64,000 nt of DNA from Octopus vulgaris (Eukaryota): NCBI GenBank assembly GCA_951406725.2, contig OX597820.1, forward strand, positions 73,904,001 to 73,968,000, read 5' to 3'. A model generated the notes under the pieces. It saw nothing but the letters and a program-made list of their open reading frames with translations, was not told where the DNA came from and did not search any database. Numbering within the stretch: the first letter of the stretch is position 1; the number at the start of each line of letters is the position of its first letter. A program made the position numbers and the translations under genes. Shown here piece after piece: positions 581-63,433 of this stretch.

Positions 581-622
581 GTCTGTGATGAGAATCCAAT
601 AAGGTTCGAAAATCGATTAAGG
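581..622 (+). ncRNA. Minimal type I hammerhead-like motif, degenerate at position 3 (C3->G)
   Basis: gtct-GTGATGA-GAATC caataa GGTTC-GAAA-ATCGAT-TA-agg. Stem II pairs, stem III is palindromic (AATCGATT), cleavage triplet UUA, short stem I. Confidence 0.5.
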
Positions 623-684
623 TTGTTCATCCGTTTTTTTTTCAGAGAAGTGGCTAAAATTTGCCCTGTTTATAATTATACCAT

Positions 685-39712: not shown

Positions 39713-40089
39713 CATATATACGACAGGCTTCTTTCAGTTTCCGTCTACCAAATCCACTCACAAGGCATTGGTCGGCCCGAGGCTATAGTAGAAGACACTT
39801 GCCCAAGATGCCACGCAGTGGGACTGAACCCGGAACCATGTGGTTGGTTAGCAAGCTACTTTATTTCATATAATTTGCCATTTAGGCATTTACAAAGAGG
39901 GGACAAACAAGGACAGACAAATATAAAGGGTGAAGTAGCTTAACACAGTTACAATTTTCGAATGAAATTACGGATAAGATTATAAACAATGAATTTTACG
40001 AAGGCAATGTTTAAAAATATTAATGATCATGTCGAAAGACGGACACCCAGCCATCCGGGTAGAACCTTTACTTTCTGATCCGGTCACAC

Positions 40090-43000
40090 TTACCTGGTGC
40101 CAAACATACCCATCTTGTATGCCACGGGCTTCCATCTTTTCACAAACATATCTCGTGACAGACACCTCTTCTCCAGCCTGATTTTGCTACTGAGGTGGTA
40201 ACTGAAAAAGTTAATCAACCCCTGGCCGGAGACAAAGGTGCCTGTCACTATACCTTTCGTACGCGTCTTCCATACTATTTCTTTCAGTATGGCTACTACA
40301 CAGAAAAAACAAGCCTTTCTTTCCCTGTTAAGGAAAGGGGGCGGCACAATCTCGATGATAGACTCAGCTGATAGCTGTACTCTTCCCATCACTGACAACA
40401 GTTGTTCAACAAAAGCTATCAGTCCCGATAACTCCGGACACTCCACGAATGCGTGCAAGACGGTCTCCCTATCCTGCTCACATCGCGGGCATGTCGGCGA
40501 GACGGCACTACCGTGCCTTGACAGCTTGTCGCGAACAGGTAAAGCTGCACGGAAACACTGCCAGGCTAGGGATTTCTGGTAATTATCCAGATACCCCGGC
40601 CCGAACGTCCTCCGGAACAGGTTGACCAACTGATTTTCATCGTAGCCCAGGGTCTCCCCCAAGGCGTCTTCGGACTTAATCTCCACTAACCCGCTATAGA
40701 AATCCGTGGTGGAACTCCTGTTGCCGGCGTTGCCCACCCGAGATAGTAGCTGGAGCGCCTGACGGCACTCCAAATGCCATTCACTCGGTTTAGGTCTCCG
40801 CTTGATCCATGCACCGATGTCCGTTAGGGATGTTAACTGGGGAAGGTAGAACCGGACGTGCGGCGACCACACCTGCTCTCCATCCAGGTAAAGCCAGAGG
40901 TGCCTCAACCTTAACGCGAGTTTTCGCATCCTCAGCCAAGGCATCCCTAGCCCACCCTTTAGCGGTTTCTGGCAGCAGACAGAGCGCTTTACAAGTGGCT
41001 TTCCTCCTTTCTACAAAAATCGGAAAAGGATTCTCTCCAACTTGTTCAGCCACAAATCGGGGCAAGGCACCACGGTCAGACGGTAGGTGATTACTGATGC
41101 TATAAACATCTGCACCACCTCCGCCTTCCCTAGCAGGGATAACGCCCGCCCAGACCAGGTCTGGGTTAGAGCGGTCACCTTGTTGGCCACCTCACTCCAA
41201 TTTTTCTCAATCTGGAGGTCTGGCCCGAACCAGACTCCGAGCAGCTTAACAGGACCTTCCGTCCAACGCCCTACGACGTTATTGGACGGCATCGGCTTGC
41301 CCCTCCAGGTGCCGAGTTGCAAACCGACCGACTTGTCCTTGTTAACCTTTGCTCCTGCCACCACCTCGTAGCTTTTCATGGCCTCTTCCACCACTGGAAG
41401 CTGGCCTTCGTCTGCCACGATGATGGAGGTGTCATCCGCATACTCCGTAGCTCCTCTTCCACACCATAGATCATGCGGCGCGCCCCCTAGTGCCTCCAAC
41501 TTCCGCAGCAAAGGCTCAAGAGCCAATACGTATAGGAGCGAGGACAGGGGACACCCTTGACGAACTGAACGCTCGATCCTGAACGGCTTCGAAAAGGAAC
41601 CGTTCACCTTGACTACAGACTCGATGTCGCTATACAAAGCAGCGATCCAACCTCGAAAGGTCGGGCCTAGGCCAGCCTCTCCGAGGACCGCCGCCAGGTA
41701 CCGATGGTCGACCCTATCAAATGCTTTGGACTGGTCTAAATGTACCAGTGCTCCCCCTGCGCCAGAAAGCTTCCCCACCCTCTCTAAGGAGTAGCGTATA
41801 AGGTGGAGATTATCGTGGATCGTTCTGCCGGGGATAGCGCACGTTTGCGCTTCCCCGACAAGTTTGTCCACGACCCGCGCCAACCTTTTTGCTCGCACCT
41901 TGGCCAGAATCTTTAACTCTGTGTTTAACAGAGTTATGGGCCTGAAGTTCCCTATCTCGTCCCCCTTGTTCGGGTCCTTCCTGATCAACGTCACCGCCTC
42001 CCGGCTCGCAGACTTGGGAATTCTCCCATTCTGCTGCCAGTTGGCGTAGACGCTAGCCAGCAGGTGCCCGAACAAGTCCTGGCATACTTCTATAAAATTC
42101 ATAGGGCAGACCATCGAGACCCGGCGACTTCTCCCCGGGGCACTTGCCCAACACCTCGATTACTTCCTCGGTTGTGATTGGCCCTTCACAGCACTCAGCC
42201 TCTCGTGTCAAGAGGCGCGGGCCACCAGACAGGAAGTCCCTAATGGCCTCACCATGATCCAGCGTCCCGCACCTCCCGGACAACTCGGCGAAGTGCTTGT
42301 GAAGTGCCTCACACATCTCGTCCCGCTTCTTGATCGTGCATCCGTTTTCATCAATAAGAGACCCAATTGTGGCATCGTTTCCACGCTGTGTTTCTATCGT
42401 ACGGGCCCATCCGGCAACATTAATTCCCTCACGGCCCAATGCTCGTACTTTAGCCCGGACTCTACATCCCTCATGTTTGGTTTTGAGGTGACGGTCTAAT
42501 GCCGTTCTCGCCGCTAAAATGTGAGATGCAGAGCCCAACCTCAACGCCTCCTCTAAGTTCTTAACTAGTTGCCCTTCTATTCTAGCCCTATCTAGTCTTA
42601 GTTGTTTACTAAATCTAATGGACTCGAATCGAATGGCTCTTTTGAGGGTGAACCACTACCGGTTATTAACCACGGCTCCGGTTAACGCCCTCTGCACTAA
42701 CACCTTAATCCGGCTACGGTATGCCTCGCGTGTCAAAATAGACTTGTTCAACTTCCAGTAGCCGGTTCCTATCTTAAGTGTGCTATCTATGTCCAGTCTA
42801 CACGTGACCATTCTATGGTCAGTATAGGGCACCTGGACGAGCTGTGGACAACTAAAACTAGACTTATCTCTAGTTCTTATCACTATCCTGTCTAGATAAG
42901 ACTTGAACCTTCCGTCGCCACTCATCCAGGTCCACTCTGGGACGTTCGGATGGTCAAGTCTGTAACGATCTGCTAGCTGAAACTGCTTAAGCAGATCCAC

Positions 43001-43492
43001 GAGACGTGAGTTCACTTTCCTATAGATCGAGCCAACGCTATCGATGTGTACGTCAACGATAGCATTAAAGTCCCCTAATATCACTAAAGTCTTCGACGTC
43101 ACGAGAAAGCCCTCTAGGCGCCGATAAAAATCAGTTTGGAAATCTCTAGCACAAGGTGCATAGAGTCCGATCAACCTGAAGGCCTTACTGCTGTATGTCA
43201 CATCAAGGACGACCAGCCCACCTTCTGGGTCTACATAGACTATACTTGTCTGTAGAGCCAAGTCTTTACGGATCAGTACCACTACGCCCCCTCGCCCTCC
43301 GGTCTGGCCAGGAGACATGATTTTCTCGTAGCCATTCAGGAGAGGCGAGAAGGTTTGTAGGCTGTCCAGCTTGGTCTCTGTAGCAACCATCACATATATA
43401 TCATGTGATCTGAGGTCGTCGAGGAAACAAGCCTGCTTCCACTTCGAACTCAGACCACGCACATTTAAACAACCAAGGTTAAGCGAAGCCAT
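40090..43492 (-). pseudogene. LINE ORF2: APE endonuclease, reverse transcriptase and zf-RVT (two premature stops, one frameshift)
   Basis: LNVRGL, ETKL, GDFN, YLDRI, TDH (APE); FRPITLLN, DQSKAFDRV, RQGCPLS, YADD (RT); CPRC..ETVLHAFVEC. TAG stops at 42656 and 41011 are in frame with the downstream ORFs; frameshift at ~42085. Confidence 0.93.
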
Positions 43493-43509
43493 TACAAAAA
43501 GTAAAAGTT

Positions 43510-44935
43510 CTACTTACATTTCGTTGGAGAGGTGGGGGCCGACCTCACCACACGTTTGTGGGCCCCTTCTTTCTCCTCTTTCTTCAGATAGTCCGGCAAG
43601 TTCGCGATATGCCGGATGGCGTTTGGGTGTCTGTCTTTTAATTGTTTGAACGTTGTTTCCGCAATCCACGCGTGTCTATTTCGATCTTTGTATTTGTTGT
43701 ACAGTTTTGCTGACTGATGCTGAACCACAATATCGTTTATGTATTTGTCTTGTGTGTCGAATTCAATTAATATGAGTTCATTTTCTTTTTTGTCTTCTTT
43801 TTCTGGGCCAGTTGAGCGGGATTTTTTTTCCGTGTCTGTGGTGTGTCTTTGTTTTTATTATTTTTTGTAGGGGATGTGGACGGGGATGCTGCACGAATTC
43901 TTTTACGAACTGGTGTAAATCCCACCTCTGATACCTTCATGGTATCGTCTGGGGTAGCAATTGTTTGTTCGGTAGGCGCCGCAGTTTTTAGGGGGTGGGA
44001 GGTTTTAATAGTGTAGGGGTTTGTGAGTGCGAGGGCTGGGTTTTTTCTTCAGTCTGTTTTGGGGTTGGCACCGTAACAGCAGGAGTGGGATTTTTTGTTT
44101 TTGTAGGGGTAGGTGCGTTTGCAAGGGTAGGGACTTTTTTATTATCTGAGGGGCCTGGTGTCTGCGGTTTCTTTTGCTTGTCTGGACAGTCTACACGAAT
44201 GTGGACCTTTTTGCCGCAGGCGTAACAGGTGGGTTTTCGGCCTTCGACCTGTACCCTGAGGGCTACGTTCTCGCCCACGAGCACCCTCTCAGGAAGGAGC
44301 TGCAGGTCCTCCGCTGTTCCTTGAATTAATATATTAATGTTACGCCCGAGCCAAAATCGAGGGGTAGAGCATGTTACTTCTAGTATTTTTATTTTGTCCG
44401 CCCTTTTATATAACAGGGCGGTCACTACCTCTACCGGATCTACTTCCGGCGGGGCTTCTACAATTCTGACCCGGGACGTCCTGCGTCCCCTATAGCTTGG
44501 GAAAAGTACCACCTCCTTGGTTTTTAGGGGGTTCACAGAATGCCCGCGGGCCATTTCTTCCCCCGAGAAGCGGACATCCACAGTGCCATATGCCCGTCCC
44601 CTGGCGACGTACACGATGTCCTTCCAAATCGGGGATAGGCATTTCTCGATGGTGCTTTTTTCAAAGTGTTTGAACCTTCTGCTTTGTGGACAGAAAGTTT
44701 TAAACACTACGGTCCGCTTCTCGGTCTCCACGATACTGGCGGAGGGTGATATTTTAACATCACCACCCTCCTCTTGCATTCTTTTAAATAGCTCGACGAG
44801 CTGGTTGACATCGAAGTCAATGTTCTCGGTAGCCACTGCGGCTACCGCAGAACATTTTTTAACATTGCTCTCCTCAAGAGCACTACTTTCGTGAATAATT
44901 TCAACAGACATTATTCTGTTGAAATTAGACAACAC
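43510..44935 (-). pseudogene. LINE ORF1, gag-like protein with CCHC knuckle (disrupted)
   Basis: 315-aa ORF with CYACGKKVHIRVDC and a Pro/Thr-rich tail; apparent continuation to 43510 in another frame. Confidence 0.75.
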
Positions 44936-47326
44936 AAAAATTACGAGTATTGGTTTCCCACAAAACTGGGAAACCTATAGAAAGTTTTTCTTCCAAAGTA
45001 GTTCAAAAAGCAGTTCAAAAATTCCAATTCCCACCCCCATTCGGGGGAGGGGCACGAAAATAGTCTGGCAGGACTATATATAGTCACGTAAATAAAAAGC
45101 CACAGTGGCTAACAGTTCAACGGTAAGAAATTATTCAATTATTTCCCGGTAAAACCGGAGAACAAGACAGTTCAGCAACGTTTAAAGGCAAATTTTCAGT
45201 AGTAGGAATTCAACAATTAACAACACAGCAAAACTCTTACCGGGAAGAAAACGCGTCCAAACCGTAGTACGGTAGGCAAAGTCACTCTTCTGTCAGTGAG
45301 GTTAGCAAGCTACTTACCACACAGCCACTCCTGCGCCAGTTATTTTTTTTTTTGTAGGAATAATCTGCCCTCAATTGCGTTACTACATCTGCTTGGAACT
45401 GCAGATGGTCGCACCGCTTTCGAGCCCCTCCTGGTTTGGTATATAATATAAACGCATTTACATCCCTCATGTTTACTATATACCAAATCAGGTATCGCCA
45501 CCATATACTATCCTGTCTACCAACCAGATGATAGCACATCATTTGGTTCAGCCGATCTGCACTGCCCATGTACCTGTTATAATCGAGGTTCACAAACAAG
45601 GTGCACCGGTAGATAGAAAATAGATCTGCCTCTTATCTCTGTATGCGATCGCTAGCAGATTTCCTTTCTGCCGTTGGATTATTTTCTTTTTTGAAATTTT
45701 GCTTTATTTTTAAATATCCAACGGCAGCCCTTTTCTACTAGCAATTACTCTTTTCTACTCTAGGCACAAGGCCTGAAATTTTTGGGGAGGGGGCCAGTCG
45801 ATTAGATCGACCCAGTAGCTAACTGGTAGTTAATTTATCGACCCCGAAAGGATGAAAGGCAAAATCGACCTTAGTGGAATTTGAACGCAGAACGTAATGC
45901 CAGACGAAATAACTTATTTCTTTACTACCACTCTGCCAGCTCGCCGCCAGCTTCTAAATCCGCTGCAAGTTTGACCGAACTAAAAAATCGGTAAAAGAAA
46001 TATTATAAAATCCTGGTTATGGTATGGAAGTAATAAATTCCAGACCACATCGTACCCTAGGCCCTTCTGACGAACATTATTGTCTCTTTTCCCAGTATAA
46101 AAAATAAACCCACAGAAATTCCCAGTATTTGCTTCGAAAATTTTCCAAACTTTGATCCCCCACGTTCGTGGGCTTTCCTGGCATATATTGTCGGAAGTGT
46201 ACCCTTCTTTTATACCTCACTATGTCCTCATCGACGGATACATATCAGGGTTATAGAGTGTTTTATATGCGTTCTGGATGCAGTCGAAGAGGGGTCTTAC
46301 TTTAAAGAAGAGATCAAAGTTTGGTTCTCCACATACTGGGGTACTGTTTGTGTCTCTCACATGTAAATACTGGTTCAGTTTCACAAATCGTGTCCTTGAC
46401 ATAATACTGGAAACGTACGATCGCCAAAAGATTCCTGATTATTCCAAGTAATTTGTAATTCTGGGTAATTGTTTTATACCCATAATAACATTTATGGCAA
46501 AAAAAAAATGCCCGTATTTCTTATGGCAAAAAATGCCCGCATTTTTTTCCAGTTAGTTTACATTCTGCATAGCGGTTTATTTTCGCATTGATGGCTTCAA
46601 ACAAGCTTACTTGAAAAACAAGAAAAAAGGCTTAACGGTTTCGCTTTCTGAGAAAGACTATGTATAGATCCTGTCTCAGAAAAATTGTTAATAAAAATAT
46701 TTTAAAACTTTTTACTCCATTCAGGTGTAAAATCGTCCTCAATGTCACTATTGCTGCTTTTAGTTTTTTCAGAATCGCTGCTTTCAGTTTCGGACACAGA
46801 AATATCCGATTCATTTTCATACACCACGTGCTTTTGTAGTTCACTCATACTTTTGCTCGATTTCTCAATATCTTCCGTTAAAAAGCCCTCAAATTCAGAA
46901 TCACTGCTTGATAGCATGAAACTCCTATCCATTTTAAAAGTTGAAGAAAATCGTCGAAGAAAAAATGTGAAAAAAATCTCTCAAAATTCACAGAGTTCAG
47001 ACATCACGCCAAACAATGTCGGATGCTATTACTCGATTATTTACAAAGTGAAGTCACGCATTTTCACGAATGCACTAACGAGATTTGTGTTGAAATTCAC
47101 ATTTAAATAACAATGGGTTCTCTCGGCTGGGTTGGTCGGTTGAACCAAAAAACTTTTCAGCCGGCTGCGGCCGGGTTGGTATCCAAAGGGTTAAGATAAA
47201 CCTTTCCTTTTCACAATACAGCTGGAATGTAGACTGAAGACATGCTTAGGCAACAACCAGTCTTCCATCCGCTCCAAAAAAAAAAAAAAAGGACAACAAA
47301 CCATTCCTTAAGTCTGTACCTACAGA

Positions 47327-47679: not shown

Positions 47680-48036
47680 TCTACAGATGCAGATGAACGG
47701 TCAACTCCGACAAGTGGAAGGTTATCCACCAAATATTTTGATTTCTTTACCCCTTTCAATATGTTTTCTATTGTTTCAGTAAAGTGGACCCACATCAAAA
47801 TTGTAGGATTTTTAAAAGTGTCTCATATATTTTTCAGCCATTAACCTTATCCTTCCCTATCGATCTAGCTTTTAAGTTAGTTGCGAACGTGGATTCCATA
47901 GGAGAAGACCTCCACTTTTTAAGATTGTTGTTGTTTTATACACACTTACACACTCCCACAAACACACGCATATACGTGTATGTGTGTGTGTGTGTGTATG
48001 TATGTCTCTCTTTATCTGTCTACATATCTATCTATC

Positions 48037-48120
<84 letters not shown>

Positions 48121-48235
48121 TGTGTGTGTGTGTGCGTCCGTATGTAAGGCAATCAACACAAAATGATGATAGCACAGGAGGGACAAGTTTTCAAAAATAT
48201 GGAATTAGTTTGATGCCTAAATAGAAGGCAAAGAG

Positions 48236-48271
48236 TTTTGACGTTTCGGGCGTTAGACCCTCATCATAAAA
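48236..48271 (-). ncRNA. Minimal hammerhead motif (C3->A)
   Basis: Minus strand: tttt-ATGATGA-GGG tctaacg CCC-GAAA-CG-TC-aaaa. Confidence 0.55.
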
Positions 48272-48806
48272 ATGAGAAAATGTTAAAAAACAGAAATAGG
48301 GAGTCAGGAGCTGGGTGGAAATGCAGTTCTATGAGGCTGTTCAGAAAGGAAAGAAGTTGGGGTTGATTTCGTTCGGTTTTGTCAGTCATATACCCGTATA
48401 TTTATTCTTTCACGTTACTATCATTGTCCCATATTCACTTGCATCAACAAGCGGAAATCGTGCAAACGTGCAGAGAAAATTTAACATTTCAACTTAGCTC
48501 TTAGCTAAAAGATGTAGAATTAGGTAATAGATAGACCTGTATTATGATTTCGAATTCTGGATTACTTCTCAATTCTCTTCAGCAGGTCTTTATATATATA
48601 TCAGACACCATGATGGAGTGCTAGCTCCAAAAGTTTTTTTTATCCTCTCTCTCTTTATTTTCTCGTGTTCCTTTCTGTTGAAGAGCATAGTCTTGAAAAA
48701 GACTTCCTCACTTTCCCGAGCGTCAAACTAATACACCTGCTTGTTGTTCACTCACCTGTCTTCGTCTTTTGTTTTTTCTGTAACACACACACACACACAC
48801 ACACAC

Positions 48807-48883
<77 letters not shown>

Positions 48884-48885
48884 TT

Positions 48886-49189
48886 GTGGAGGCGCAATGG
48901 GTCCAGTGGTTAGGGCAGCGGACTCGCGGTCGTAAGATCGCAGTTTCGATTCCCAGATTGGGCGTTGTGAGTGTTTATTGAGCGAAAACACCTAAAAGCT
49001 CCACGACGCTCCGGCAGGGAGTGGTGATCCCTGCTGTACTCTTTCACTACTCTTTCTCCTACTCCTTCTTCTGTTGGCCTGCTCGCTTAGCCAGCGAGGT
49101 GGCGTCATTCAAATGCTAAAAAAATCAATGCGAACGCATTGTGACCAGCGATGTGTAACAACATCTGATGGTCTGGTCAGTCACGTGAT

Positions 49190-49196
<7 letters not shown>
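48886..49196 (+). mobile_element. SINE with family-B head and an alternative tail, between (TA)n tracts
   Basis: Head matches the 23924 copy to ~49060, then diverges. Confidence 0.8.
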
Positions 49197-49246
<50 letters not shown>

Positions 49247-49339
49247 ATCCAAACAAGAAAGCACAAAAAACACAACAACGTGAGGACGTGGAACAAATAT
49301 AGTATTATTGGACGCTCAGGAAAGAAGGAAAGAAGGAGG

Positions 49340-49374
49340 GTTTAACGTTTCGAGCGGAGCTCTTCGTCGGACAC
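49340..49374 (-). ncRNA. Minimal hammerhead motif (U4->C) in a ~208-bp element (49243-49450) bounded by (TA)n
   Basis: Minus strand: gtgt-CCGACGA-a-GAGC tcc GCTC-GAAA-CG-TT-aaac. Confidence 0.55.
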
Positions 49375-49448
49375 ATAGGAGAAGGAAAGATCCAGAGAAG
49401 GGAAGACAGAGGAAAAAAATCGCCAACGGTACACACGAGGTCACATTT

Positions 49449-49500
<52 letters not shown>

Positions 49501-49548
49501 GAAGTTTGAAAACGCCGCTATATAAGTTAAATTTTAATTTTCTTAGAG

Positions 49549-49596
49549 ATTTTACATGTTTCGGTTCTTCTTGAGAAAACGAACCTTATCAAAAAT
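49549..49596 (-). ncRNA. Minimal hammerhead with U3-A8 core covariation
   Basis: Minus strand: attt-TTGATAA-GGTTC gttttctcaagaa GAACC-GAAA-CATG-TA-aaat. Confidence 0.68.
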
Positions 49597-49908
49597 ATTT
49601 TTAAAAGTTAAGTATAATAAAAAAGTTCATAATTGTTTCTCACTAGTCTCAACAGAGTCCACGTGGTGGTGTTTTGTGGTGGGAACATAATGGCTGTCTT
49701 ATGTGTTGACTATATTCGTTGGCTGAAATTGTGGAAATGACCAGCGGCTGAAATAGCAGTAGTAGCAGTGACTGTTGGTCGTAGTAGTAATGGTAGTGGT
49801 GGTTGAGAGAGAGAGAGATATGTATGCATGTGTGAATGTATGTATATGCACTTGTGTATGCGCGCGCATGTTTACATCTATAGGCATTTATATGTACATA
49901 CACACACA

Positions 49909-49951
<43 letters not shown>

Positions 49952-50226
49952 GCGTGTGTGTGTGTATTATACATACATAGATACACACATTTAAGATCTC
50001 AGCAAATGTACTGAAAGACTTTTCGTATTATCACTTTCGCAGTGTATATACATAAAACAGACCAAAGTGTCTATAAATACATGACTATAAATCACGTGTA
50101 AGTGATACCACGTGTTCTTCGGAATCCCCTTCATACTGTACCTATCGAAATAAACAATAATAGCCTTTTAAAGATTAAAGAGCCTTTCCCTCTTGGGTCC
50201 ACCTCTCTCGGAAGCACATATGTATG

Positions 50227-50260
<34 letters not shown>

Positions 50261-50759
50261 TGTATGTATGTATGTATGTATGTATGTATGTATGTATGTA
50301 TGTATATACGTCGGTATGTACGTACTTACGTATGTACTTATTTACGTATGTATGTATGTATGTATGTATGCATGTATGCATGTATGCATGTATGCATGTA
50401 CGTAAGATGTATTCTTTGTGTGTGTATGTGTATGTGTGTGTGTTGTATATACGTATGTGTGTGTTTGATTGTCCGTCACCACCGCTTAACAACTGGTGTT
50501 TATAAGTTTACATCACCATAACTTAGTAGTTCGGCAACGGACCCCGATAGAATAAGTACATGGCTTTAAAAAATGTCACGGAGTCGATTTGTTCGTCTAT
50601 AACTCTTTAAGGCGGTACCCCAGCATGGCCGCAGTCAGATGACTGAAACAAGTAAAAGAATAAAAGAATGCATTAGATTAATGTGAACAGGCACAGGTCC
50701 TTCGATTGAACAGAGCTGGAATTATTTCCCCTTATATAAACTATATACGCATGTGTATG

Positions 50760-51099
50760 CTGAGACACCGTTGGGTCATGTCTAACCATGGGATCGCACC
50801 TAGAAAGTTACCATCCCAGGAACAAGTCCGAGCAAGGTTGTTTATGGAAGACCAGAAGTTGCCCATGCATACCAGCCTCCCCTCTTCACGCCACCAGTGT
50901 TATCCAAGGGAAAGGCAAAGGGACCGATACAGCTTGGCACCTGTGACGTCGCAACTCATTTCTACAGCTGAGTGAACTGGAGCAACGTGAAATAAAGTAT
51001 CTTGCTCAAAAACACAACACGCAGCCCGATCCGGGATTCGAACTCACAACCTCACGATCGTAAGCTCGACGCTGCAACCACTGAGCTATGCGCCTTCAC
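50760..51099 (-). mobile_element. tRNA-derived SINE family C (second copy at ~58757-59050, +)
   Basis: Head gtgaaggcgcatagctcagtggtt...gagttcgaatccc, flanked by duplicated tacgcatgtgtat. Confidence 0.85.
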
Positions 51100-52030
51100 T
51101 ACGCATGTGTATACACTACATAAATACAAATGAATTTATCCGTATTTATCTGTCTCTGTTTTAAAATTCGTGTTCACAGTGACTTCATGTAGCACGTATT
51201 AGCTTCTTCAACCAGCCTGCTTTAATAAGCAGGTGACACCTGATGTCCAACTCAGCACAAATTATATAATAAATTTTATAACAATTTAATTGTTCCGGCA
51301 TCGTAACAGCAAATGTCCCGTTATTTTAAATCTAGCTTTAATTAATAATTTCAAATTATGACACCAGTGATTTTAGGAGGATGCGGTCAGACAATTACAT
51401 CGACTTCTGTACGTAACTGGTGCTTTATTTTATCAACTCCGGTTCGATGAAAGGCAAAGTTGCTCCCGGTGGCATCTGACTTTAGTACGCAAAGAACTGG
51501 AAGAAATATTACTGTTTTGTCCGATGCTATAACGATTCCGCTAGCACACCACTTTAACTGTTCTTAAAATAATGGTTTCAAATTTAGGCACCCTTGTGCC
51601 TCTGCCTGTCTGCAGTTCAATGACTAAAACAAGTAACAGATTATATATATATATATATTTCGTTTCCATATTTGGTTTGCAAGATTCTTTATATGAGTTC
51701 GTGAGTTGAAGCATATTCTGTTGTGTCTGGGGAGAGTAATTTTCTTGTGAGTGGATTTGGTAGGCGGAAGCTGAAAGAAGCCTATCGCATATATATATAT
51801 ATATATATATTGTGTGTGTGTGCCAGTGTTTGTCCCCCAACAATCGCTTCACAACCGATGTTAGTGTGTTTGCGTCCCCGTAACTTAGCGGTTCGGCAAA
51901 ATAGGCCGATATAATAAGTACTAGGCTTAAAAAAGAATAGGTCCTGGGATCGATTTATTCGGATAAAGGCGGTGCTCCAGCATGGCCGCAGTCAAATGAC
52001 TGAAACAGGTAGAAGAATAAAAGAATTTTT

Positions 52031-52075
<45 letters not shown>

Positions 52076-52460
52076 CAATAATGTATGTAAGCAGGTATGT
52101 GAATACACATTTCCATGTAGTGTTGAGTGACCTTAAACTTGCGTTTGAATGCCTATAAATACTCACATATCCAGATGCATAAATACACAGGGTTGCTGGG
52201 GTCTACGTGTATGAACGAGCGAATGTATTGAAGTGCGAAAGGAAGGTGGTTTATGTAAGATGGAAGACGTCAAACTGAATTACAAAGATTTTCTAAGAGT
52301 TCACACCATAACGTGAAGTGTTTGAAACTAACAACATTGAATCAATGTATTACTATGACTTCCTGTACATACACACCACACGGACACATACCCCCTATAC
52401 ACACACATACACACACACACACACACATATGTATTCACATGCACGCACATATTTTTATAC

Positions 52461-52508
<48 letters not shown>

Positions 52509-52807
52509 ATTCGACCCCACCACTTCAAATGTGTGTGTTTATGTATGTGTGTGTGTGTGTGTGTGTATGTATGGTGAAACAAAGAGGGACATAGAGACAG
52601 TCACAATGAGAAAGAGGGAGAGGCGGTGAGAGACAGAAAGAGAGGAAGAGAGAGAGAGAGAGAGAGAGGGGAGGGGGAGAATGGGAGAAAGAGAGGGAGA
52701 TTCAAACCGAGTGTGCCATTGCAGTGTGGCTGGTGGATAAATCTGTATCGGAAACACTTCACAACGAGGTTAAATACGTTTAGAAAACACAGTCATGTGA
52801 CTGCCTT

Positions 52808-52845
<38 letters not shown>

Positions 52846-54039
52846 TACATATACAAACATATGTGTGTGTCTGTGCGTAGCGCAGGTACGTGGCCTAGTG
52901 GTTAGGACGTTCGGATCGTGATCATAATGTCATGAGTTCAATTCCTTGACCGTTTGGCACATTTTATTCTTATGTAACGCATTTCATTTCCCCTTGCTCC
53001 AGTTTATTCAGCAGTGAAGATTCAAGAGCTGGGCCTTGTGATGAGAAAAACTCCTTCACTCTAACTGACGTCCTCGAACACCCAGTTCCTTACAACTCCT
53101 CTCTTGATCGACATTACACTTGATAATACAATGGTGTTATACGCCTATAATTGCATTATAACCATTGTCCTTCCCCTGGAAATATATTCATCCACATACG
53201 TCACAAATTCAACATTCACCCGAAGCCTGCACTCCATATGTACTCACATACAACGACCATACAATTAATATATAAACTGCACTCACCATTTGTATACACA
53301 TCTATCTAGCTTGTAAAATAATAAATGTGTTAAAACAACTCCCTTGCAATTAGAAGCACGTATATCTCCTTCTAACAGTAAATTAAAATTTTTGATGACA
53401 TACCTTTTTACGATAATTTGAATGAATAAGTGAAAGCTGTACTTGTTTTGTGATTTATTTTTCTATAACATTAACCCTCTTCTACAATATTATTAAATAA
53501 CGTTTTAAACCACGAATATTATTAACTCTTTGTAAATTTATTTATTTTTAAAGTTTATAGCATTAAACTCATATATCCTCACTTCTGAAAGCACGTTACC
53601 TTTAATAACTACTTCTATTTCATGATTCAACTTTTATTTTCGTATAAATATTAATTCTTTTTATCCTCTTCTTTGTATTAACTCATTGACTGCATAATTA
53701 AATTTTATGGACATTCTTGTAATGATGTTAATTATATACCGAAAAATACAATTGATATTTTCTGCTTCTGCAGTATAAAACAGCTTTATAAGCACTTTAT
53801 CAAAATTTGACACTCGAATTTTTGTCCAATTATTCAGTGAGTGAATAATAATTAATTAAAGGAAGAAAAGTGAAGTAAAGTCGATGTTACGAACGTTTCT
53901 GTGAATGAACGTTATTTACTCCATACTACATACAAAGTTACACAAAATATGCAACATATACAATAACGTTAATGTTTAATCACTTTCTCAGTCATCCTGA
54001 CTATATCTAGGTATAGGCACGGCTGTCTGGATAAATGTT

Positions 54040-56472
54040 ATATTTAATTGAAAGTTAATCATCAATGTACTTTCCCTGATTATCTATGACTTGCTTCCAT
54101 CTCTTTACAAGCTTTTTAATCCCATCAATGTAAAACTCTTTTGGTTTCAAAGCGAAGAACTCGTAAATGTCAGGTTCGACCTCCTCCTGGCTTGCGAAAG
54201 TTGTGTCCCCCAAATAATTCTGTAAACTATTAAAGAAATGGTAGTCTGAAGGAGCAAGGTCGGGAGAATAAGGTGGATGAAGAAATTTTTCCCAATCGAC
54301 CTCTTCGATCTTCTGTGATGTGATCTTTGCAGTGTAGGGTTGCGCATTGTCCTGATGAAGCGTCACTCGTTTTCGACTCACTAAAGCGGCCCTTTTTTCT
54401 TTCAAACCTTGGTTCAAACGCTCTAATTGCTGACAGTAGACTTGAGCATTGATTGTTGCATTAGGTGGTAACAATATAAAGTGAATTACGCCTTTGCAAT
54501 CGCACCAGATAGAGAGAATAACCTTTTCCTCATGAAGCTCCCTTCTCAGTTGTGGTTGAGCATTTTCTTTTTTACCAAGCCACTGTTTACGATGTTTTAC
54601 ATTTCGATAGAAAATCCATTTTTCGTCACAAGTCTATCGAAAATGGATGAAATGAGTTTGCGAGAATGGAGAGAAGAGCAGATGCCAACTCGGGATTTGC
54701 GGTTGCTATCGGACAATACATAAGGCACCTATTTTCCAAGTTTAGGAATCTTTCCACGTTGTTGAAGATGACGATGAACAGTTGTATGGTTTGAAGTAAG
54801 CTTTATTGCCAATTCTTCAACTGATAATGACGGATTTTCTTCAAGTAATGCCTCAAGGAACTTATCATCAAACTCAACTGGACGTCCTTTTCGATATTCA
54901 TCTTCAATTTTGAAAACGATCTCCTGCAAGTTCTATCATTCAAGCACTTTCCCATAAAATGAGTATGTTTCGAGTCACTTCGGCTGCAGCGTAACCTTTA
55001 TTGTACTCATAAAGAATCATATGTGCCTTAAATGCTCCTTGGATACTTCCATGTTAAAAGGGTTTTAATCAAAGCAATTTTAGGGTGTCCACGAAGTCTG
55101 GGTACATGAAATAAAATCATAACATAAACAAATAAATATAAGAAATAATAAATTTCCTTTTTTACTTTTATTTAAATTAAATAAAAAAAACTTTACTTTT
55201 CTAAATTTTTTTGTTATTTTTTCTACAGATGATCGAATGATAGCTCTGTCTAAAGAAGAAAGAATCGAGTTGGTATTATTAAGTAGACGAGATGGATGGT
55301 CTTACGCAAAATTGCGGAAGAATTTAATCTTCGACACCCTTATAGGCAACCTATTTATTTTACTGCCGTCGGGAAATTGATCAAGAAATTTAAAGAAACA
55401 GGCAGTGTTTTGGATAAACCCCGTTCCGGGCGACCAAAGACTTCAGATGAAACGAAAGAGGCTGTCATGGCTAAAGTTTCTGCTAGCCCAAAGAAATCAC
55501 TTCGTCGGACATCCACGGTGTTAGGTGATCCAAATCCAACCATCCACAAAATGCTGGTTGAGGAAAAGTTTCATCGATACAACCTACAGATATTGCATCA
55601 CTTAAATGAAGACGACCCTGATAGACGAATGTAGACGTGCGAATGGCTCTCAGATAAAAAGGATGAAATATCAATTTTACGAAAAACTTTGTGGTCAACT
55701 GATAGAATCTTCTATACTGGTCTCGAGGTAATCCACATTGGATGGATCTATCCAAACAAGCAAGGCAGCAAAAAGGTGATAGTGTGGTGTGGTTTGTGGA
55801 AAGCTCTTGTTCTAGGACCCTTCTTCATTGAACATGTAACGGATGAGACTTATGTAAACATATTGAAAGACAAATTATATCTCAAATTGAGCGCCTAGGC
55901 AAGAGCCTTCCGAATTGGTTTCAGCAGGGTGGGGCCCCTACCCATTTTGCCACAACTGTTAAAGATTGGCTTCATGACACTTTTCCTCACTGGATTGAAA
56001 GAAGGGCTCATATGGAAAGGTCCCCTCGTTCACCAGACCTTTCTCCCCTTGATTTCTTTTTCTGGGGTATGTTGAAAGAGAAAGATTACAGATTTAAAAC
56101 ACATGAGAGAACGCATTACCAGTCAGTGTGCTGAAATTGATGGCAATGTAGACTTATTTAATCAAGTTCACCTGAATTTAGCAAGGCGCATCAAGTTATG
56201 CATTGAAAAATGATGGAAATCACTTTGAAAATATTATTTATTAGTATTATAATTAAATAAAATTGTTTTGTTTTAAAAGTATGTGTTAATCTCCATGTAC
56301 GCAGACTTTGTGGACACCGTCTATTATTTTGTAAAACAATATTTAATTAGTTTAAACGTACACAAATGCATAATAATAATTTTTAATTGAATTAGACATT
56401 TGAAAATACTATTAAATTTCATTCAAATCTAAAAAAAAGGTAAAATTGGACAGAACTGATTGGATGACTTGA
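54040..56472 (-). mobile_element. Decayed mariner (DD34D-type) transposon interrupted by a nested element
   Basis: HQDNAQP and HPPYSPDLAPSDYHFF motifs (ORF 54055..54474), HTH region 54729..55050, and a 5' TIR-like end near 56445-56472. Confidence 0.85.
55083..56320 (+). mobile_element. Tc1/mariner-superfamily element, rosa/DD41D-like (spacing counted as 40), decayed
   Basis: TIRs ggtgtccac.aagtctg.gtacatg at both ends. KFKETGSV.D.PRSGRP and FQQ(G)GAPTH...SPRSPDLSPLDFFFWG. Confidence 0.85.
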
Positions 56473-57237
56473 TATATATAATCTATGATATTCTAGTAGG
56501 TTTCAAGTTTGTAACACCTTGATATCTCATGTTATCTCATTTTATATGCCTAAGACGTTTATTTTCTATTCTGGTTTTTATATATTTCTATACATTATAT
56601 TTGTATCTATAATTTATTTTAAGCCAAAACATAATACGATCCTTGTACAAACGAAAGAACAAGAATGTGCTTTGGAACTTTTATCTTCCACCGATGATTG
56701 TAATCGATGGTGACATGAGCGATGATTTTGCGACTATCTTATATTTTACAGAGAAATTGGAAGCCCCGAATGTAAACCACCACTTTATGCATAATACAAT
56801 ATTAATAGTTCTGTATTTCTAACTCAAATTCTGTCCTCAATAATTATAGATCTCTATTTCTAAATGTAATTCTTTTGCTTCTCGTTCAGTTTATAACGAT
56901 AACACGCATTCTTGTCTGTCTCTTGACAAAGCTTTTTTTCTCCAGCGTTCACCACGTCACCTCGTTAGGGTTAAACAGCACTTACCGAAAGTTTTCACTG
57001 TCCTGTTTTTGTTGGCAGCTTTGACGTTCCACGTATCTCAAATTTTATTTAATTTGCTTCGGGGGAGCAATTGCCTTGACGAAGACGCATCTTGTTGCAC
57101 TGCTCGCAATGCGGAGTAGGTAAATCTGCCAACAATTAAGGAAGGATTGTTTTTTATGCTGCCTTCGCGCTATAGTTCTCAATATATGATGGAACCGAAC
57201 CGAACCGAACCGAACCGTTTGTAATAGTGATACTAAT

Positions 57238-57581
57238 GCCGTAGCGTCGACTGTGGGCTGGTAGCTGTGTACAGTCGCCCCAATGGCGTCCAGAGCGAGC
57301 TCTGGTCGCCGTAGCGTCGACCGTGGGCTGGTAGCTGTGTACAGTCGCCCCAATGGCGCCAAGAGCGAGCTCTGGTCGCCGTAGCGTCGACCGTGGGCTG
57401 GTAGTTGTGTACAGTCGCCCCAATGGCGCCAAGAGCGAGCTCTGGTCGCCGTAGCGTCGACCGTGGGCTGGTAGCTGTGTACAGTCACCCCAATGGCGCC
57501 CAGAGCGAGCTCTGGTCGCCATAGCGTCGACCGTGGGCTGGTAGATGTGTACAATCGCCCCAATGGCGCCCAGAGCGAGCT
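57238..57581. repeat. GC-rich 70-bp tandem minisatellite, ~4.9 units, preceded by (GAACC)n
   Basis: Units start at 57238, 57308, 57378, 57448 and 57518 with few substitutions. Confidence 0.95.
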
Positions 57582-57660
57582 GATATTGAACCATTGTGCT
57601 CTATGGTGCCTTGCATACCATCATGGAAATATTTGATGATCCTCAGCAGTACCAGATTAT
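57582..57660 (-). pseudogene. Short RTE-type RT fragment
   Basis: LLRIIKYFHDGMQGTIEHNGSIS resembles the RTE/BovB RT segment. Confidence 0.55.
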
Positions 57661-59212
57661 CTTCGCAATTTCGACTGATTATACCTGAATTCGCTCCCAT
57701 CAGACCAGCCCCAAGGAAAAACTAAGCTAAGAGCATTAGATTCCTTGGAAGAGAAAGAGAGCGAGAGAGAGAACCAAAAATAATTGCTGTTGGAAAGGAA
57801 GACAGACAGACAGACAGACAAACATTTTACTGCCTATAACATTTCAGGAAATGAATTCTGGATTTGCCAAAACCTCTTCTTTTTCAGCCTTGTATACAAC
57901 CATATCGAAAAGCTATAACCTCATATGATGTTGGTTCCACACACCTTGTGTCTTGCCTGCTATTTATCTAAACTGTATTTCAAAATTCGCATCGTCATCT
58001 TTGGCTTTTCTTCAAATCTAATTCCTATACACATTCACAAGTAGCGCACACATACACACACCCACAGATATATGCACACATATACACAAACATACACACA
58101 CACACACGTACATACATACATACACATACACGCAGATTTACATGCACGGACACACATATACACACATGCAAATTCACATACACAGACGCACATTTACACA
58201 GATACGCACTCACACGCGAACACACAATACAACACACATATACGCACACGCACACTTATTTATATACACACACACATAAATAGTAAGGGAATTAAAAAAA
58301 TATTTTATAAAAAAGTTATAAAATCTTTTATCAGGATGCTGCTAACCTTTTTTGGAAGAAGTTTTTTTTCCTAGTGTGTGTGAGCGCTTTCGATTAACGT
58401 TTTCAAACACACGTGCTCTTGGTTAATATATGAAAGAGGAAGTTATATATATATATATATATATACACACAAACATAAATACATATAACACACATACATA
58501 CCCATACACATACATACACAAACGCGGATCCCAGACAATAGGTATATAATAGATATATTATTGTCTGTTGTACTGATACACCGATGTACCCGATACCCTT
58601 CCGGAAGAGAGAAGTGTGGTTGGAGTTGCGGGAGGGAAGTAGACAGACAATTTCATTTTCTCCATTAATACACATTTGAGATGTTTGAACCACACATGTA
58701 GATAGTTTGCATTTTATCAGCCTCATGTGGCTAATGTCATTTTATCAGCCTCATATGGTTGTGAGCTCGAATCCCGGACCGGGCTGCGTGTTGTGTTCTT
58801 GAGCAAGGCACTTTATTTCACGTTGCTCCAGTTCACTCAGCTGTAGAAATGAGTTGCGACGTCACTGGTGCCAAGCTGTATCGACCTTTGTCTTTCCCTT
58901 GGATAACACTGGTGGCGTGGAGAGGGGAGGCTGGTATACATGGGCGACTGCTGGTCTTCCATAAACAACCTTGCCCGGACTTGTGTCTAGGAGGGTAACT
59001 TTCTAGGTGCAATCCCATGGTCACTCATGACCCAAGGGGGTCTTTACCCTTTTTATGGCTAATGTCGGACAAAATTAAGGTTGTCGAATGTGCGACTCAG
59101 TTTCGATTCCATCCATTTCTCATATACCATTAGTATCTTTCTAAAACCATAAAACTGAGCCGAACATACCCTCATTCACAAACATACATACACACGTATA
59201 TGATAAAAAGGA

Positions 59213-59369
59213 AACCAAATGCTGGTATTTCGATATTTTGAATGCATTTAATATACGTGTTTCGAATAATCATGTAAGAAAGCAATTATTATGTAAGAAC
59301 TCTCTTACATAATTACTCGAAAGACATGCATTAAATGCATTTAAAATATCAAAACATCAGCATTTGGTT
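59213..59369. repeat. Fold-back inverted repeat whose apex looks like a hammerhead stem II/III remnant
   Basis: aaccaaatgctg...catgtaaga mirrors tcttacat...cagcatttggtt. Apex ttatgtaaga actc tcttacataa is followed by ctcGAAA. Confidence 0.8.
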
Positions 59370-59408
59370 GTGTCCATATTATAAACCGATTATAGACTCC
59401 ATCTAAGA

Positions 59409-59445
59409 ATATCTGAAGAAGGAATATCATTCCGAAATATAATAT
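59409..59445 (+). ncRNA. Minimal hammerhead motif with intact core
   Basis: atat-CTGAAGA-a-GGAAT atc ATTCC-GAAA-TA-TA-atat. Confidence 0.62.
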
Positions 59446-59454
59446 CAGACTACC

Positions 59455-59687
59455 TATTTCTTTACTACCCACAAGGGGCTAAACACAGAGAGGACAAACA
59501 AGGACAGATAAACGGATCAAGTCGATTATATCGACTCCAGTGCGCAACTGGTACTTATTTAATTGTCCCCGAAAGGATGAAAGGCAAAGTCGACCTCGGC
59601 GGAATTTAAACTCAGAACGTAACGGCAGACGAAATACGGCTACGTATTTCGCCCGGCGTGCTAACGTTTCTGCCAGCTCGCCGCCTT
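59455..59687 (-). mobile_element. SINE family A with 15-bp TSD
   Basis: tataatatcagacta at 59438-59452 and 59688-59702. Confidence 0.92.
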
Positions 59688-59977
59688 TATAATATCAGAC
59701 TATCGATGACTAAATTACAACAGGTATATAGCCCATTGTCTGTATTATAGTGCATTGCTGTAGCATTCACAACTTTTTATTCTTTACAAACAATACACAA
59801 TGCTTCAAGCGAACTACAATACTCTCCTATATTAAATAACACTCTTCCATAACAACGGCTCGATTAATATAACAATGATTACGGAGTGAAATGTTTTACT
59901 GAACCCGAATAAAACAATTCTGGTAAAGTATATCACATCAACGTATACATACATACATACATACATACATACATACA

Positions 59978-60011
<34 letters not shown>

Positions 60012-60773
60012 CATACATACATAAAAGGCAAACTGAATCAACCAACAGATTCGCTCATTACAAATACAATATGTAAGCGGAACAGTAAAGCTATGCAAGA
60101 CTTTTGTCAGGTTTAAAATGTGACATTGTTTTCGTTATCTACTTTCTAAAGATGGGGCTTTGTATCTTTGTTATAAACCGGCACGTTCTTCAGAGAAAGA
60201 ATTTTAATGATTGAAAGCAGAAGATACGTATGTATGTACGTATGTATGTATGTATGTATGTATGTATGTATGTATGTATGTATGTATGTATGTATGTATG
60301 TATGTATGTATGTATGTCATTATTCAGTTTATTTCAAGATTTCTTAGCAATAGAGAAAGAACAGGTTTCTAACCTAGATCCAAAGCTCCTTCATTCAAAT
60401 TTCAACATCAACAGGGTAATTTTGTTTGTCTTCTTTTATTCTTTTACTTGTTTCAATCATTTAACTGCGGCCATGCTGGATCACGGCATTTAGTCGAGCA
60501 AATCGTTCCCTTTTTTGATTGTTGATGGATCATTGCGACTAGATTAATTTAATTTAATTTATTTCAATTATTTTCCCCTTTACTTTTGAATGACTAAATC
60601 GTCTTTTTAAAACGATTGAAACCGATAGCATATTCTGATAAAAATGTAAACACTTTTTGTTCATGATAACTTCTCAAAGGCCTTTTCTTGTTATCGTTAG
60701 TACTTTCTCTCTCTCACACACAAACACACACACACCGCACACATACCACACACACACATATATATACACAGAC

Positions 60774-60804
<31 letters not shown>

Positions 60805-60889
60805 TGTATGTATGTATGTATCTATCTATCTGTCTGTCTGTCTCTCTCTCTCTCTCTAGATATATATATCTAGAGAGAAAGATAGAGAG

Positions 60890-60934
<45 letters not shown>

Positions 60935-61199
60935 GAGCAAAGCACAAGAAGTCTGGCACCCTATTATTTCAGACATTTCCCACCATCTTCTATATATATA
61001 TATGTATATTAATCCGTACAAGTATGTACCTGCTCTTCTTTCGGTCTGCAGCAATTCTGGTCGTTATGGATAAAATATATATAAAATAGGATTATAAAAT
61101 AGTAATATATTTTACAAAACAAAAGGATTGGTCGAAAATAAATTATATGTGTTAAGCGTTAATTGAAATAAGCTATTATGAGGGTCATGAACAACTGGT

Positions 61200-62445
61200 G
61201 GTATTAAGCTGTTCTATAGCAGCACCAACAGCTGCAGCAGCAACAACGACTAGTGTTACTACTCCCACCACCAATACTACTACTGCTGCTACCACCATCG
61301 CCATTACTACTACTACTACTACTATAACCCAATCACCATCGCTACAACTACAGCGGCCATCTCTATATCTTCACTACCAGCTCCACCACCATCATCATCA
61401 ACAACAAACTCTACTACCAAATTTTGGCACAAGGCCAGCAATTTTAAGGGATGGTGTAAGTCGATTGCAACGATCCCTGACCTCAACTGGTACTTAGTTT
61501 ATCGACCCCAAAAGGATGAATGCCGAAGTCGACCTCTGCGGAATTTGAACTCGGAACTTAAAGACGCACAAAATGCTGCTAAGCATTTCGCCCGGTGCCT
61601 AACGATTCAGCCAGTTCACCACCGTTGCTCCACCAAACACATTGAAACGACTACACTTAGACTATCAACCCTATCACCACCACAACCACCACCATCTCGC
61701 CAATATCATCACCATCAGCATCGCCACCACCATCGCCAACATCGCCACAATCGTCAGCACCATCACCACCATCACTCCCACCACCACCACCATCATCGCC
61801 ACCAACACCGTCACCACCATCACCATCACTATCATCATCGCCATCATCATCATCATCATCACCATCGGTGTCATCACCAGCATCATCGCTACCAATGAAA
61901 GGAGCCAAAAATAGAACCCCTCCACCACCACAGCCACCACCAATACTAACATAACCACCAGCACTAGCACCACCAGCACTAGCGCAGTACCTACCACCAC
62001 CACCACCACCACCACCACCACCACCACCACCACCACAACCACCACCACCACAACACCACCACCACACCACCACCACCACAAACACCACAAACACCTAAAC
62101 CAGCACCAGCAGCCCAACCAGTAGCAGCACCACCATCTACCACCACCGCCACCACCACAAAAAGCAAAACCACCTCAACCACCCACCCCAACACCACCAA
62201 CCACTCCACCAATAACACCAAAACCACTTCCCTCTTCATGGCTACCGCATGTACCACCACCACCAGCACCACCGTTACCACAAAACGCAAACCACCACCA
62301 TTACCACCACCACCACCACCACCACCACCATTACCACAAAAAGCAAAACCTCCACAACCACCCACCCCGCCACTCCATCACCAACACCAAAACCATTTCC
62401 CTCTTCATGGCTCCCGCATACACCACCACCACCATCACCACCTCT
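61200..62445. repeat. Degenerate CAC/CAT/CAG low-complexity region with a SINE-A fragment
   Basis: Directly visible; produces the His/Pro/Gly-rich spurious ORFs. Confidence 0.9.
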
Positions 62446-62994
62446 TATCTTACAAGCATAAGGCAATTATCTTCTTTTCCTGTGAAAGTATACGAGAATG
62501 AGTGTTATGAAGGCCAATGCTTAGAAAGTCATTTACTATCGTTTTAACGACTTCAATTTTACTAATAACTCCTAAGAAAAAACGCAAACCTTTGACAGAA
62601 CAGCAAAATAATCTCTACCACTTTGGGCAAGTGTCTTCTACTATAGAGTCGGGCCGACCAAAGCTTTGTGAGTGGATTTGGTAGACGGAAGCTGAAAAAA
62701 GCTCGTCGTACATATATATGTATAAGTATGTGTGTGTGTGTGTGTGTGTGAACGAAAAATTAATTCTAAAAATTTGAAAAAATTAATTATAATACAATAT
62801 TGATATTAAAAAAAAAATTACAAGTTTTGTGGGGGTGGGGGTGGAATCATTTCAAGACAACACAATATGACACTGAGGGAACGTTTGGGGGAAGATAGTC
62901 AGTGAGATAAATTATTACAGGCGAAAGGAATGTACTTATATGAAAAGTTGGACATACGATTTACATGATGTAACCAGGTCTTCGCACTCACACA

Positions 62995-63037
62995 TGCATG
63001 AAGACTTTAATACATATGAAATACATATACGCATGCA

Positions 63038-63073
<36 letters not shown>

Positions 63074-63175
63074 TATATGTATGTATAAATGTAAATACAC
63101 ACACATACATATATATATATATATACATATATGCATACATACATATATATATATAAATATATATATACATATATG

Positions 63176-63226
<51 letters not shown>

Positions 63227-63349
63227 ATGTATACAAATATATGTATATATATGTATACGTATACAAATATATATATATATATGTATGTATATGTATACAA
63301 ATATATATATATATATGTATGTATATGTATACAAATATATATACATACA

Positions 63350-63428
<79 letters not shown>
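62995..63428. repeat. (TA)n/(TACA)n compound microsatellite (one of dozens in the window)
   Basis: Directly visible. Confidence 0.95.

Positions 63429-63433
<5 letters not shown>

Follow-up and report, generated by a model that had tools for sequence, protein, structure and literature searches.

In the active hammerhead core, position 3 is paired with position 8, and a U3-A8 combination keeps that pair. The exchange has been described before, and the following rests on the available parts of the cited sources. Perreault et al. 2011 (PMC3088659) found that C3-G8 covaries to U3-A8 in several natural hammerheads and, citing Przybilski and Hammann 2007, stated that the U3-A8 variants are active in vitro. 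Cervera and De la Pena 2014 (PMC4209133) reported U3-A8 in about 1,300 minimal hammerheads of Schistosoma Penelope elements that lay outside their first descriptor, and minimal motifs were weakly active in vitro, only as dimers. Animal non-LTR retrozymes, which are tandem and carry type I hammerheads, were defined by Cervera and de la Pena 2020 (PMC7229834) and have been linked to the pLTRs of Penelope-like elements (PLEs) by Li et al. 2026 (bioRxiv 10.64898/2026.07.22.740005). PLE insertions include inverted, 5'-truncated copies and show a target bias to (TA)n (PMC8557442). The PLE hammerhead studied in 2024 (PMC11167929) is protein-assisted and needs the 3-8 pair, is dispensable for insertion in vitro, and comes from work that also reports priming without homology in the anole PLE. 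The U3-A8 swap is therefore already published, and the motifs analyzed here add new cases of this known variant, in element types that are likewise known.

The analyzed DNA (the window) comprises 64,000 nucleotides of Octopus vulgaris contig OX597820.1 and is AT-rich, microsatellite-rich animal DNA. The original prediction, made from the letters alone, placed U3-A8 cores at 49549 (UUGAUAA), 63593 (minus strand; UUGAAAA), and 63910 (plus strand; UUGAAAA) and regarded U3-A8 as a tolerated natural variant, in line with PMC3088659 and PMC4209133 as far as these were available. All three cores are present, the one at 49549 on the minus strand. A strict scan of both strands gave four matches, including 49549-49596 and 63593-63634, and a scan that left positions 3 and 8 free gave six, with scores of 13 to 15 (Table 1). 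In 100 shuffles of the window, the latter scan found three matches at score 14 and none at 15; 20 matches scored at least 12, one of them U3-A8. The combination of a short palindromic helix III with a helix II of at least 4 bp had no match in 40 block-wise dinucleotide shuffles. The folds at 49549 and 63593 are far above shuffle expectation.

Rfam gave no match in the whole window at the gathering threshold, and with a loose E-value over 48000-64000 and three short stretches it returned microsatellite-driven or chance rows, with no hammerhead among the matches listed (best 150 of 153). Since the C3-G8 motifs of the window were missed as well, the failure on the U3-A8 ones is not attributable to the core swap alone. 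The expectation that searches confined to CUGANGA overlook U3-A8 cores is right but not new, as PMC4209133, in its available part, built a second descriptor for the variant. The four best-supported motifs of the window all keep a Watson-Crick 3-8 pair, two as U-A and two as C-G, in agreement with the known tertiary pair (PMC3884650, available part); two weaker candidates (585 and 48267) have positions 3 and 8 unpaired. The C3-G8 motifs are a minimal hammerhead with an A inserted after A9 (59409-59445, plus strand) and a hammerhead with a 7-bp helix I (48533-48589, minus strand). The folds with unpaired positions (581-623, plus strand, G.G; 48236-48271, minus strand, A.G) are probably decayed C3-G8 copies or chance.

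Table 1. Hammerhead motifs and associated features in the window
Feature	Position	Strand	Basis or remark
Minimal type I hammerhead, U3-A8	49549-49596	-	Scan and shuffles
High-copy non-coding repeat carrying the 49549 hammerhead	49496-49750	-	Contig depth, which drops from about 49660 to 49750
(AT)n microsatellite, 3' end of the 49549 repeat	49451-49495	unstranded	Likely target site
Canonical type I hammerhead HHR1, U3-A8	63593-63634	-	Scan and shuffles
Extended helix I of HHR1, internal loop after bp 6	63575-63652	-	Fold
Inverted arm of retrozyme insertion	63427-63657	-	Ends in (AT)n at 63427
Second HHR1 copy, helix II deleted, no hammerhead possible	63655-63678	+	Sequence
Forward arm, 362-nt retrozyme unit	63663-64000	+	Sequence and contigs
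Degenerate-looking U3-A8 hammerhead-like motif HHR2	63905-63950	+	In the 362-nt unit
U3-A8 matches, scan with positions 3 and 8 free	49592 and 63628		Scores 14 and 15
C3-G8 matches, scan with positions 3 and 8 free	59413 and 48582		Scores 14 and 15
Unpaired 3-8 cores, scan with positions 3 and 8 free	585 (G.G) and 48267 (A.G)

The core of the 49549 motif runs from 49592 (U3) to 49586, with A8 at 49587. Helix I has four A-U pairs (49596-49593/49552-49549), and helix II (49585-49563) has 5 bp closed by G10.1-C11.1 plus a further 4-bp hairpin, followed by GAAA at 49562-49559, a palindromic CAUG helix III at 49558-49555, and a GUA site with a predicted cut after A17 (49553). The motif agrees with the type I core rule (N3 U4 G5 A6 N7 N8 A9, G12 A13 A14, A15.1-U16.1, H17), with a Watson-Crick 3-8 pair; it has three helices, helix I being open-ended and helix III solely palindromic, of the dimer type, and no mispair stands beside the core. 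It fits the PLE minimal hammerhead in its helix I of 4 to 5 bp, G10.1-C11.1, and palindromic 15.2-16.2/loop 3, and lacks an unpaired base between A9 and 10.1, a feature that is typical, not universal, of that class. The monomer fold has a z score of 0.05, and the four A-U pairs of helix I are absent from both monomer and dimer predictions.

Family states were read from Logan contigs, which drop rare variants and for which depth is the sum of contig means. For 49496-49750, contigs of four public runs with four organism labels (X2 to X5) were compared at 80% likeness, with differences from 4%; copies less than 80% alike were excluded, and any divergent subfamily with a different 3-8 pair would escape notice. 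X2, X3, and X4 contributed 1066, 1041, and 647 contigs, and X5 none, a zero that is no proof of absence. The summed depth of the bin at 49586-49594 was about 210,000 (X2), 197,000 (X3), and 30,000 (X4), against tens for single contigs, which indicates that the repeat is high-copy. No other letter at 49586-49592 was listed at 4% of depth or more in X2, X3, or X4. Only two variants fall inside the 48-nt motif, a 3-nt loop deletion (8-10%) and 49575 G>A (99%), the latter a loop II change private to the window copy. Between 49500 and 49660, variable sites numbered 0 of 48 in the motif and 8 of 113 in the flanks (Fisher p 0.055).

The window copy of this repeat stops 57 nt past the predicted cut, in (AT)n; the loose ends of family contigs show that some end likewise and others run on. 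No ORF remnant was recognized by eye in the flanks, and the stretch is likely a Penelope-like pLTR or 3' fragment. Adjoining it is another hammerhead-bearing fragment between two (AT)n tracts (49243-49450, minus strand), whose motif at about 49340-49385 (49380) has a C3-G8 core with U4 changed to C, one base inserted after A9, and a weak helix I. A metagenome scan with the 49549-family pattern returned 0 loci; the general U3-A8 pattern returned three (L001-L003), which had no convincing helices I and II by eye and were treated as chance.

HHR1 has its core UUGAAAA at 63628-63622, with U3 at 63628 and A8 at 63623. It combines a helix I of 6 bp, a helix II of four G-C pairs with a 5-nt loop, GAAA, a palindromic CGCG helix III, and a GUC site, and likewise follows the type I core rule, with U3-A8 as a Watson-Crick pair in place of C3-G8; it has three helices with helix I open-ended, no mispair beside the core, and a solely palindromic, dimer-type helix III. 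The fold of the extended form (-35.1 kcal/mol, z -3.44) was equaled in stability by 1 of 200 shuffles, and two copies are predicted at minimum energy to form a dimeric hammerhead with an intermolecular helix III (-31.9 versus 2 x -12.9 kcal/mol). Contigs on 63575-64000, compared at 80% likeness with differences from 3%, numbered 2730 (X2), 2077 (X3), 1271 (X4), and 7 (X5), and the bin at 63620-63634 had a summed depth of 124,000 to 744,000 in X2, X3, and X4. No other letter at 63628 or 63623 was listed in these three runs at 3% of depth or more. The sole HHR1 substitution at this level, 63611 G>A (0, 6.8, and 3.4%), turns a helix II G-C into G-U and keeps the pair, and a base inserted behind 63642 affects distal helix I.

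HHR1 and the 63910 motif lie in one repeat. Record 25 of X5 (392 nt, 0 differences) reads forward through 63663-63975, passes into the reverse complement of 63657-63591, and closes on itself; this cyclic contig is a 362-nt unit plus overlap, so both motifs belong to one family. The contig is equally compatible with a DNA tandem and with circular RNA. The window holds one unit and 25 nt of the next (63976-64000), which are identical at 25 of 25 positions to the 25 nt upstream of HHR1 and run off the window; in the first of these two units, HHR1 lacks helix II. The unit falls under the size rule for non-LTR retrozymes (tandem, 150-450 bp, a type I hammerhead per unit), has a GC content of 0.417, and is 64% paired, with a circular fold z of -8.3 against 60 shuffles. 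No ORF of 150 aa was found in it, and it is non-coding. Between 75 and 89% of sampled words from 63431-64000 occurred in 20 runs under 7 organism labels and from 13 studies, which indicates that the family is shared or nearly identical across several labeled organisms. No RNA run stood among those listed, which counts neither for nor against.

Variable sites were counted as the 21 sites of at least 3% in X2 to X4, 7 of 28 listed rows being omitted as X5 only or below 3%, and some near 63844-63855 may stem from insertion junctions. Extended HHR1 (72 positions) has one of them, the 63910 motif (46 positions) four, and the remaining 244 positions of the unit 16. Extended HHR1 thus compares with 20 of 290 in the rest of the unit (p 0.054), and at a level of at least 10% with 0 of 72 versus 16 of 290 (p 0.026). 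Like the value for 49549, these p values are borderline, single-test, and taken on related copies.

The end of the window carries two inverted arms, of which 63427-63608 and 63663-63844 are identical at 182 of 182 positions. The left arm reads leftward through the intact HHR1 and then into (AT)n. The right arm opens with an HHR1 lacking 18 nt and reaches as far as 63976, where the next unit begins. The arm junction is a 4-nt microhomology; insertion may have been microhomology-primed, but priming in the anole PLE is reported not to depend on homology (PMC11167929), so the short A/T matches at the junctions may be incidental. The 18 nt, which are helix II, were lost between two GAAA repeats, the first of which is created by the UUGAAAA core; a core of this kind may for that reason favor deletions that skip the hairpin. 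Other copies have the intact HHR1 form, as seen in loose ends before 63663, and the deletion was not among the joints listed (best 15 of 22). That the arms are identical although the family is polymorphic suggests a single template molecule or a single homogeneous array. None of the contigs listed bridges the inversion junction at 63657-63663, so an assembly fold-back may also account for it.

The motif at 63910 is of another quality. Its core UUGAAAA is present, but the strict scan rejects it: A9 is followed by two inserted bases, A and C are mismatched at 10.1-11.1, and an A bulges at 2.1. The motif breaks the no-mispair rule and the invariant A15.1-U16.1 rule for type I hammerheads. The pairing that the original prediction had called otherwise intact, if looser at 63910, is complete at 49549 and 63593 and is interrupted here by mismatch, bulge, and insertions. 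A descriptor loosened post hoc to admit it gave 10 matches in 100 window shuffles and none in 3000 shuffles of 63663-63975, and the motif is probably not a chance match. Throughout the 5' core, U3 and A8 included, no other letter was seen at 3%. At 63939, A>G (A15.1) reached 13, 32, and 8.5% of depth in X2, X3, and X4; at 63935, C>T reached 27, 26, and 24%, and the U there restores pairing where helix II otherwise starts with the A.C mismatch; variants at 63909 and 63918 stood at 1.6-6.6%. Behind 63910, 16 contigs in X2 and 14 in X4 leave the unit into AT-rich sequence, which indicates that it is also a preferred insertion end.

The motif looks like a relic second hammerhead under relaxed constraint. 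That it is instead a working second ribozyme, by which each 362-nt unit would be cut twice, is unlikely: the conserved 5' core, the shuffle result, and an A-U pair at 10.1-11.1 in about a quarter of the depth speak for activity, as does an axolotl retrozyme hammerhead that cuts with a mismatch at the helix II base (PMC7229834, available part), but A15.1 is G in 8.5-32%, the 10.1-11.1 mismatch persists in about three quarters, the bulge at 2.1 and the two inserted bases remain, and such flanking mispairs were grounds for rejection in the available part of PMC3088659. The motif also varies about as much as the rest of the unit (4 sites in 46 nt against 16 in 244). A speculative extension, to which we likewise give little credence, makes the unit a chimera in which a canonical U3-A8 hammerhead processes the RNA and a captured Penelope-type minimal U3-A8 hammerhead (63910) is being silenced, since a second cut would break the circle; its flank would be kept as an entry site for the Penelope reverse transcriptase, as many copies end exactly there. 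If true, the 362-nt unit would be a molecular fossil of retrozyme recruitment of Penelope enzymes.

The number and independence of the families bear on how the double change is read. The three cores had been assigned to independent families in unrelated sequence; 49549 is unrelated to the 362-nt unit as far as detectable, and 63593 and 63910 share that unit (record 25 of X5), so there are two families, not three. Blastn gave no hit between the 49549 family and the unit, and without the cores the flanks scored no better than their dinucleotide shuffles (106-692 of 1000). When the cores were part of the comparison, one of eight tests reached 3 of 300 shuffles. Common descent of 63910 and 49549 is unproven: a collinear alignment exists, but the flanks alone do not exceed shuffles. 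Origin of the unit by duplication of a half unit was rejected, as the cores are spaced 267 and 95 nt apart.

The prediction that U3 and A8 are fixed together held in both families across the three runs, at the thresholds given above. Its further claim, that the double change is covariation evidence for real ribozymes, stands in part. The 3-8 pair differs between families, but within each family U3/A8 is invariant, which is fixation, and fixation does not prove cleavage; covariation is therefore visible only between families, against the C3-G8 motifs at 59413 and 48582. As copies are related, fixation counts as one event per family.

On the reading that accounts best for these results, 49549 and 63593 have type I hammerhead folds, U3-A8 is the family-wide state in each of two separate high-copy repeats, and the motifs likely cut themselves in transcripts that enzymes of Penelope-like retroelements are predicted to copy back into the genome. 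The folds, their excess over chance, the family-wide U3/A8, the 362-nt tandem unit, the inverted arm, and the (AT)n ends were observed directly. Variable sites avoid the hammerheads of both families, which supports this reading with p values of only about 0.05. Each family would descend from a founder that was already U3-A8. HHR1 has helices of canonical size and would release 362-nt monomers from multimeric transcripts; it would do so most readily as a dimer joined by the palindromic helix III, and the monomers may close into circles. The 49549 ribozyme would be weak and minimal, needing a partner copy or protein help, and the isolated fragment in the window is unlikely to cut itself. The identical arms at 63427-63844 could be two cDNAs of one multimeric or circular RNA, primed on both DNA strands of one (AT)n target.

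Unlikely, though most nearly applicable to the minimal motif at 49549, is that the U3-A8 motifs are family-wide but inactive, inherited as fossils in an element that spreads without RNA cleavage. The weak helix I of 49549, for which no hammerhead fold is predicted, would suit such a view, as would the borderline conservation, the poor cutting of metazoan minimal hammerheads in vitro (PMC4209133), and the continued insertion in vitro of anole PLE hammerhead mutants, by which spread is possible without cutting (PMC11167929; both in their available parts). All core bases and helices, however, are intact in the family state, subfamily variation sits in the flanks, and HHR1 combines helices of canonical size with an extended fold that is stable. 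Random decay of C3-G8 consensuses, with two transitions in each window copy, has next to no likelihood: other candidates in the window (585, 48267, and 49380) do carry one change at position 3 or 4, but neither C3 nor G8 exceeds 4% (49549) or 3% (63593) of depth in three runs, so U3-A8 is the family state in both repeats and decay is refuted for copies at least 80% alike.

No PLE ORF tied to either repeat was found in the window. Other mobile elements are present. A near full-length Tx1/L1-type LINE (39846-45315, minus strand; gag-like ORF1, AP endonuclease, RT, and zf-RVT in Pfam) is broken by stops and a frameshift; it is flanked by a 16-bp target duplication (45315-45300, 39861-39846) and lies within a SINE-like repeat, possibly as a target-specific insertion. 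The host repeat resembles a tRNA-type SINE. Short frames at about 45282-46980 (minus strand) resemble, by eye, a broken piggyBac-type transposase, and a mariner-type transposase fragment (Pfam Transposase_1) lies at 54055-54633 (minus strand). A GC-rich 70-bp tandem array occupies 57238-57581 (4.9 copies, 95% matches).

Among described elements, as far as the available parts of the sources reach, the 49549 repeat most resembles the Schistosoma mansoni Cercyon PLE (PMC4209133). Both are genome-wide animal repeats with the core swap, a short helix I, G10.1-C11.1, and a palindromic helix III, occur mostly as single dispersed motifs, and are missed by a C3-G8 descriptor. Unlike Cercyon, 49549 lacks an unpaired base between A9 and 10.1; its helix II measures 5 bp plus 4 bp rather than 7 to 8 bp, it belongs to a different phylum, and no ORF-bearing element is tied to it here. 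The 362-nt unit is like animal non-LTR retrozymes (PMC7229834; bioRxiv 10.64898/2026.07.22.740005) in its tandem 150-450 bp size, GC content below 50%, canonical type I hammerhead with a short palindromic helix III, high self-pairing, and proposed PLE mobilization. It differs in its U3-A8 core and the second, degenerate hammerhead-like motif per unit, both unmentioned in the available text of those papers, and is known here from contigs. Compared with the variants of PMC3088659, U3-A8 is here the family state of very high-copy animal repeats. With PLE insertions (PMC8557442, PMC11167929), the window repeats share partial tandems, an inverted 5'-truncated copy, microsatellite targets, a hammerhead near the 3' end, and two reverse-transcription start sites; in contrast to PLEs, no RT or GIY-YIG coding sequence was recognized in them. 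The available text of PMC7151607 and PMC13282606 holds nothing on U3-A8, and in that of the latter, an Octopus repeat annotation, the words hammerhead, ribozyme, and retrozyme are absent. No publication on cephalopod U3-A8 retrozymes was found in the literature searched, supplements aside.

These results leave the ribozyme mechanism unchanged and define no new kind of element. A less ordinary detail is that the 362-nt unit has a second, degenerate-looking U3-A8 motif where insertions preferentially end. For a variant reported in 2011 and 2014, two well-supported animal families are gained, and any census of hammerheads in such genomes has to include a U3-A8 descriptor. Very successful repeats, including one with a canonical retrozyme hammerhead, can have U3-A8 as their founding state, and thousands of copies would permit a natural mutational scan of the U3-A8 core.
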